In this document: one piece after another, positions 47,347 to 47,406 of the stretch
How the letters are laid out: each line of letters opens with the position of its first letter
Numbering within the stretch: position 1 is the first letter of the stretch
Origin: Escherichia coli
GTDB taxonomy: Bacteria; Pseudomonadota; Gammaproteobacteria; Enterobacterales; Enterobacteriaceae
NCBI RefSeq assembly: GCF_041248615.1
Contig: NZ_CP158426.1
Length of the DNA: 64,000 nucleotides
Reading direction: 5' to 3' (one strand)
Position numbers and translations under genes: made by a program
Notes under the pieces: model-generated
The model's database searches: none
What the model was told of the DNA's origin: nothing
What the model saw: only the letters and a program-made list of their open reading frames with translations

Positions 47347-47406
47347 TGATTGAACGTGAACTGGGGAACTGGAAAGACTTTATCGAAGTTATGCTTCGTA
47401 AGTAAT
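47347..47406 (+). CDS. ypfM: Very small protein YpfM (19 aa)
   Basis: ATG ATT GAA CGT ... CGT AAG TAA = MIERELGNWKDFIEVMLRK, preceded by AGAGAGG SD. Confidence 0.7.

Follow-up and report, generated by a model that had tools for sequence, protein, structure and literature searches.

The 19-codon gene ypfM of Escherichia coli: a conserved microprotein gene whose mRNA is contacted by ArcZ on Hfq

The closest described relative of the transcript considered here is STnc250 of Salmonella, which is bound by Hfq (4-fold enriched in co-immunoprecipitation), gives a Northern band of ~220 nt, is stable and growth-phase dependent, and was concluded to be a small mRNA corresponding to ypfM (Sittka et al. 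2008, PMC2515195), a gene that Wassarman et al. had predicted in 2001 (PMC2515195). STnc250 is the positional ortholog of the E. coli gene and occupies the same acrD/yffB spacer. In Rfam it is kept as an 'Hfq binding RNA' under RF01409 with the label of an sRNA; in fact, the model spans the last six codons of ypfM, the 3'UTR and the terminator, and hence describes the 3' part of a small mRNA. The supplements of the Salmonella small-protein census mention neither ypfM nor STnc250.

In E. coli, chromosomal SPA tagging by Hemm et al. is said to have confirmed the YpfM protein in 2008. Top-down mass spectrometry has since identified the intact 19-mer with 100% coverage and its N-formyl-methionine, and DIA, PRM against synthetic peptides and an earlier proteome study have found YpfM too, with PRM detection being reproducible only in M63 low-Mn medium (PMC12529367). 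The gene, known since 2001-2008, long annotated and seen by mass spectrometry, is accordingly not a new discovery.

Several dual-function RNAs, for example SgrS/SgrT, AzuCR/AzuC and Spot 42/SpfP, resemble ypfM in being short Hfq-associated transcripts with a translated ORF of <50 codons, and AzuC is, as predicted for YpfM, a non-transmembrane amphipathic helix and, like YpfM, was detected by PRM. In contrast to these RNAs, the ypfM RNA mostly behaves as a target of ArcZ, a small RNA feeding into rpoS control, in interactome data. A second set of related cases are the coding-region targets of Hfq-dependent sRNAs ('five-codon window'), with which ypfM shares an sRNA contact, at nt +1 to +27, that overlaps the 30S footprint; the core pairing (codons 5-8), however, lies at the edge of the classical window, and regulation is putative here.

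Locus architecture and coordinates

The window analysed here is a 64,000-nt stretch of E. coli chromosomal DNA (NCBI RefSeq assembly GCF_041248615.1, contig NZ_CP158426.1), whose features around ypfM are collected in Table 1. Translation of the CDS yields MIERELGNWKDFIEVMLRK*, and RefSeq names the identical sequence ypfM, 'protein YpfM' (WP_001386977.1). The original prediction had placed a 19-codon ORF, ypfM, at 47347-47406; the ORF and its name stand, while the coordinates were 1 nt too far right, as this span translates to *LNVNWGTGKTLSKLCFVSN. Its placement between yffB and acrD is borne out by the ORF listing and the RefSeq annotation, which locate both flanking genes, and the remark that such an ORF is easily missed by length thresholds is equally apt, as an ORF listing with a 20-aa minimum omits ypfM. 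The counterpart in E. coli K-12, b4606 (2590807-2590866, RefSeq label 'uncharacterized protein YpfM'), has the same 19 amino acids, the same acrD-ypfM-yffB order and the same promoter hexamers, with no differences.

Table 1. Features of the yffB-acrD region in the window (positions count from the first letter of the window).
Feature	Coordinates	Strand	Description and basis
yffB	46609..46965	-	flanking gene; ORF listing, RefSeq annotation
Upstream element CATCGCAGCAATCGAGTAAAT	47267..47287	+	lies 5-25 bp before the -35; promoter regions of yffB-anchored loci, aligned and tabulated by base frequency
Sigma-70 promoter TTCACC-17-TAGAAT	47292..47320	+	-35 at 47292-47297, -10 at 47315-47320; promoter scan
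Predicted 5' leader (~19 nt)	47327..47345	+	holds SD GAGAGG at 47335-47340; sequence
ypfM CDS	47346..47405	+	19 codons plus TAA, encoding MIERELGNWKDFIEVMLRK; translation, RefSeq annotation, conservation, MS
Segment in ArcZ-ypfM chimeras	47345..47372	+	predicted pairing core ACUGGGGAA at 47360-47368 with ArcZ UUCCCUGGU; CLASH, RIL-seq, duplex prediction
Internal 3'UTR hairpin CAAGAACC-cgctgagca-GGTTCTTA	47429..47453	+	terminator scan, MFE fold, 3'UTR comparison
Bidirectional intrinsic terminator	47466..47498		A5 (47466-47470), GGCGACA stem (47471-47477), 8-nt loop, TGTCGCC (47486-47492), T6 (47493-47498); sequence, terminator scan
acrD	47504..50617	-	flanking convergent gene; stop codon at 47504-47506

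With 84 listed ORFs of >=20 aa in 5.5 kb, a 19-codon ORF by itself is not beyond chance, and the reality of ypfM therefore rests on its conservation and on the published detection of the protein. Both speak for a genuine small gene, as had been claimed: the frame is kept in 65 of 80 loci, pN/pS is ~0.1, and the protein was detected by MS (PMC12529367). A dedicated equivalog model of 19 positions exists in NCBIfam (NF033843, small_YpfM; cutoff 33 bits). The scan with it, which has a minimum of 20 aa, was applied to the homologues of 20-22 aa and gave 49 bits for the 20-aa Pantoea homologue and values just under the cutoff for the more remote homologues of Yersinia (32.1) and Hafnia (28.8); the 19-aa protein of the window was assigned via its RefSeq name. 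Pfam holds no matching family for YpfM, and the 64-kb window contains no second YpfM-like peptide (best unrelated score 25 vs 100). We regard it as practically certain that the CDS is ypfM, a real and already known protein-coding gene, and it is a free-standing, monocistronic one.

Within E. coli, the yffB-acrD spacer (538 bp), in which the region is annotated as ypfM, is found at >=95% identity in 5,425 of 5,426 complete genomes, and the core 106 bp of the ypfM region are >=99% identical in 5,401 records. About ten complete genomes cover the region only in part (e.g. 39% or 55% of the query, or in two places of one record), which suggests insertions or deletions that disrupt the locus. A plasmid record, too, carries one copy of the spacer. 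In strain SCPM-O-B-8794, the yffB protein is 89% identical to that of the window (pS 0.34) and the ypfM 3'UTR is different, with an ypfM ORF that matches the window at every nucleotide; this strain, filed under E. coli, probably belongs to a divergent lineage of Escherichia.

The promoter scan returned TTCACC-17-TAGAAT as the only promoter-like site, and the same site has been listed as the constitutive sigma-70 promoter of ypfM, with H-NS in the spacer (Shimada et al. 2014, PMC3946193). In the yffB-anchored loci, a -35 CTTCAC and a -10 TAgAAT are kept across genera at fixed spacing. Upstream of them lies the element listed in Table 1, for which the consensus in other genera is AATCAnAGCAATyGGTTAAA and around which the spacer is not conserved; judged from this pattern, it is probably a site for a regulator. 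As YpfM had been seen in PRM only in low-Mn medium, control by MntR was considered. The element's left half is similar to that of AAACATAGCAAAGGCTATGTTT, the palindrome of the mntH promoter that we take to be the MntR box, matching it at 10 of 11 positions in some genera and more weakly in E. coli (manual alignment); the right half is unlike that palindrome, the element itself is no palindrome, and MntR control of ypfM finds no support. As a separate observation, two published signals fall in the spacer that holds the element, namely H-NS (SELEX) and MarA, the latter as a ChIP peak in the Salmonella ypfM/yffB spacer (PMC10268841).

The leader reads ATAAT(A/T)ATAAGAGAGG and is almost invariant in Enterobacteriaceae. 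It carries the good SD that had been noticed from the sequence, followed by a 5-nt spacer (ttgtt) and the ATG. At least three consecutive ARN triplets, as in the (ARN)n motif for the distal face of Hfq, are present in 26 of 44 distinct leaders vs 13% of shuffles; in the leader of the window, which reads AAT TAT AAG AGA, this motif is absent.

At the other end, the terminator indeed is bidirectional and common to acrD, its stem being preceded by an A-run and followed by a T-run that ends 5 nt from the acrD stop codon; a hairpin flanked in this way can serve both convergent genes. Its motif AAAAAGGCGAC...GTCGCCTTTTTT is conserved across genera at nearly every ypfM 3'UTR end, a strict hairpin-plus-T-run test is passed by 57 of 66 loci, and 63 of the 65 loci that bear ypfM have acrD downstream of it. 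The 3'UTR in between varies between genera in both sequence and length (54-155 nt, median 93). Its internal hairpin likewise differs in sequence by genus, and a hairpin was found by eye at this place in several 3'UTRs. The Rfam model RF01409 mirrors this variation. At the 3' end of ypfM it scores 112.9 bits for Salmonella, 81.5 for Citrobacter and 42.9 for Enterobacter; on the window it gives 37.5 bits (E 2.4e-5) and so misses the gathering score of 42, owing to divergence of the E. coli 3'UTR between stop codon and terminator.

Judged from the -10 hexamer and the terminator, the ypfM transcript would start at about 47325-47328 and end near 47498, giving a length of ~150-170 nt. A 180-nt ypfM RNA folds better than its shuffles (z = -3.1), and in the predicted fold the SD, the start codon and the first eight codons are largely unpaired. 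Three further observations concern the region upstream. A CLASH hybrid with ChiX (single read) maps to 47162-47190, a stretch that precedes the ATG by ~155-185 nt and also lies 5' of the predicted promoter; RIL-seq reports 140 chimeras for a feature named 'ypfM.5UTR'; and the Salmonella Northern band of ~220 nt exceeds the length predicted from promoter and terminator. The upstream chimeras and this band may indicate that transcription has a second start further upstream or that a longer isoform is made.

Elsewhere in the window, two Rfam families score above their gathering score on the - strand, C4 antisense RNA at 1625-1708 and isrK at 1733-1809. Both are typical of P4/P2-type prophage elements, and the left end of the window therefore probably holds a prophage or a remnant of one.

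Conservation of the frame and the predicted YpfM helix

Conservation was examined in 80 loci that were anchored on yffB in a collection with one genome per species and whose flanks were scanned for the YpfM peptide. An intact ypfM ORF, divergent from yffB, is present in 65 of them, comprising all sampled genera of the Enterobacteriaceae as well as Dickeya, Hafnia, one Pantoea, one Yersinia and '[Erwinia] mediterraneensis'. Peptide scores of the homologues range from 59 to 100, as compared to <=25 for the best unrelated match. In the remaining 15 loci, mostly from Erwinia, Serratia, Photorhabdus and similar genera, ypfM was not found in the scanned flanks, one of these loci being without any upstream flank. 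The ORF always starts with ATG; its length is 19 codons in 62 loci, with two loci at 20 codons and one at 22. The conservation check that had been proposed thus finds the frame kept across the Enterobacteriaceae and into Dickeya, Hafnia, Pantoea and Yersinia, that is, the opposite of an unconserved frame, which had been named among the grounds for giving up the gene.

With the sequence of the window as reference, ypfM has a pN of 0.037 and a pS of 0.358 (pN/pS ~0.1), and yffB in the same genomes a pN of 0.147 and a pS of 0.659. The ORF is under purifying selection at the protein level. An antisense gene over ypfM was considered as well: one antisense frame lacks stops in 48 of 49 distinct ypfM sequences, which, by a hand check of codon registers, seems to follow from residue composition (Tyr absent, and few codons for His/Gln after codons that end in T). 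The flanks where the ORF of such a gene would begin are, in addition, not conserved, and the gene was rejected.

Among 23 distinct YpfM sequences, M1, E5, W9, K10, F12, I13, M16 and L17 are invariant, and variation is found mainly at positions 4, 8, 11 and 15. The peptide has no net charge and no transmembrane-like stretch. Modelled as an alpha-helix, it has a hydrophobic moment of 0.55 (top 2.5% of shuffles), substitutions fall on the polar face of the predicted amphipathic helix, and the further a position lies, in angle, from the hydrophobic face, the more residues it tolerates (Spearman rho 0.71, p 7e-4). Such a pattern would be expected if a single amphipathic helix worked by burying one of its faces, be it in a partner protein, in an oligomer or in a membrane surface. 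YpfM would then fold as a single amphipathic alpha-helix, the hydrophobic face of which (I2, L6, W9, F12, I13, M16, L17) would dock on a larger partner protein, on itself or on a membrane surface. Whether docking of this kind, as in other bacterial microproteins, is indeed how YpfM acts may be called evenly balanced.

ArcZ contact and silent-site conservation

The second layer of information lies in the RNA. An Hfq CLASH study recorded 13 ArcZ-ypfM hybrids, in exponential and transition phase, and flagged them as also found in RIL-seq (PMC7213987); the 'arcZ' fragment in these hybrids is the Rfam ArcZ that adjoins arcB. In the RIL-seq feature table, the ypfM CDS appears with 2,829 chimeric fragments and a single partner (PMC8175672), the statistics of which (96 interactions, SIC 0.921) match ArcZ, itself present in 28,271 chimeric fragments in total. 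Physical contact between ArcZ and ypfM on Hfq is hence well documented by two independent interactome data sets. Of 16 full-text papers that name ypfM, none is a study of ArcZ.

The seed of ArcZ is UUCCCUGG, and the ArcZ segment AUUUCCCUGGUGUUGGCGCAGUAUUCGCGC is written in upper case, i.e. as highly conserved, in the Rfam family consensus. The predicted duplex comprises a 9-bp core and flanking pairs that reach back to the start codon, with -16.3 kcal/mol, an energy that is equalled with the ArcZ seed by 35% of random 48-nt windows from the 64 kb and by 7% of dinucleotide shuffles of the site. Among synonymous recodings, the native codons 2-9 rank in the top ~14% for ArcZ pairing in E. coli, with a similar median across genera. 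The codon variants CUA/UUA/UUG of Leu6 keep the pairing; replacement of Gly7 abolishes the core in Dickeya, Yersinia and Hafnia. The motif GAACTGG occurs twice in the ORF, 8 nt apart (47358-47364 and 47366-47372), and the two copies extend across the ArcZ site. In one CLASH hybrid, this same ACUGGGGAACUGGA stretch is paired to the 3' region of SdsR, annotated as pphA 5'UTR.

The silent sites of ypfM are much more conserved than those of either flanking gene. At conserved residues, the mean frequency of the commonest codon is 0.87-0.88 in ypfM, as compared to 0.69 for yffB (Mann-Whitney p 1.8e-4) and 0.63 for the last 200 codons of acrD (p 3e-6) in the same genomes, and none of 181 acrD windows of 19 codons matches the value of ypfM. 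The codon of Gly7, for example, is the rare GGG in 47 of 48 loci, whereas Gly columns of yffB use all four codons. This conservation is high over the entire ORF and not confined to the ArcZ site, and neither the recoding comparison nor the background energies significantly support ArcZ pairing as its cause. An in-ORF hairpin, GAAG/CUUC, which is part of the STnc250 structure in Rfam, is paired in 88% of cells vs 43-55% in slid controls; covariation is unsupportive, with no compensatory double change, and a covarying hairpin was rejected.

An RNA-level use of the coding sequence would add to strong silent-site conservation, and that it does contribute is a tentative reading for which we would claim somewhat less than even confidence. 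Alternatively, the constraint could come from limits on translation initiation or expression level in a very short ORF. Concerning regulation, ArcZ together with Hfq would pair across codons 1-8, inside the ribosome-binding window, and it is quite possible, at a confidence just short of even, that this pairing lowers the synthesis of YpfM when ArcZ is abundant. As a selective cause of the silent-site conservation or as a regulator of YpfM, the ArcZ contact may thus be entertained as a tentative reading that extends beyond the contact itself. A further reading, in which the 57-nt CDS is under double selection, both for an amphipathic-helix microprotein and for an Hfq RNA element with an ArcZ (possibly also SdsR) site at codons 1-9, appears rather doubtful.

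Alternative readings and significance

Of the alternatives, a dual-function RNA survives best, in which the ypfM transcript encodes YpfM and in addition titrates ArcZ, and perhaps SdsR or others, in trans on Hfq as a sponge or decoy. Such a role would fit with the large share of ypfM among the chimeric fragments of ArcZ in exponential phase (2,829 of 28,271), with the finding that ypfM is the second RNA in ~31% of its own chimeras, which is unusually high for a plain target, with an Hfq-type terminator in an RNA that was first catalogued as an Hfq-binding sRNA, with silent sites more conserved than in both flanking genes and with the single SdsR hybrid at the ArcZ site. However, a published classifier gives ypfM an sRNA probability of only 0.009, RIL-seq lists one partner only, the freely varying 3'UTR is without a conserved seed, and the energy of the ArcZ-ypfM pairing is unremarkable. 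Taken together, we consider this role improbable.

Far less probable still is a non-coding Hfq-binding sRNA (STnc250) with an incidental ORF, whose peptide would be irrelevant or not made. Its Hfq association and the filing of the Salmonella ortholog as an sRNA gene in Rfam would be in line with it, but STnc250 was reclassified as a small mRNA by Sittka et al., the intact formylated peptide has been seen by MS, and ATG, length and stop position are kept across genera in which the silent sites of the neighbouring genes are near saturation, with a pN/pS of ~0.1 and substitutions that avoid one helical face. A leader peptide or attenuator ORF acting in cis on a downstream gene can practically be dismissed despite the suggestive ORF size and strong SD, as the ORF lacks a run of regulatory codons and is followed by a strong intrinsic terminator and then by a convergent rather than co-directional acrD, an arrangement kept in 63 of 65 loci.

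Our best guess is that YpfM is a helical microprotein that binds a partner, with ArcZ and Hfq exerting control over its mRNA. In any case, ypfM serves as a positive control, in that reading the raw sequence recovered a genuine 19-codon gene that length-thresholded ORF callers skip, and the remaining interest lies in the role and the partner of a microprotein kept in both synteny and sequence across the Enterobacteriaceae. The heavy engagement by ArcZ, so far visible only in supplementary tables, may reflect either regulation of YpfM or titration of ArcZ. Double selection on the CDS, if true, would explain both the excess silent-site conservation and the ~10% share of ypfM among ArcZ chimeras in exponential phase, and ypfM would then be either a microprotein gene dedicated to control by ArcZ or a genuine dual-function RNA with a buffering effect on ArcZ.
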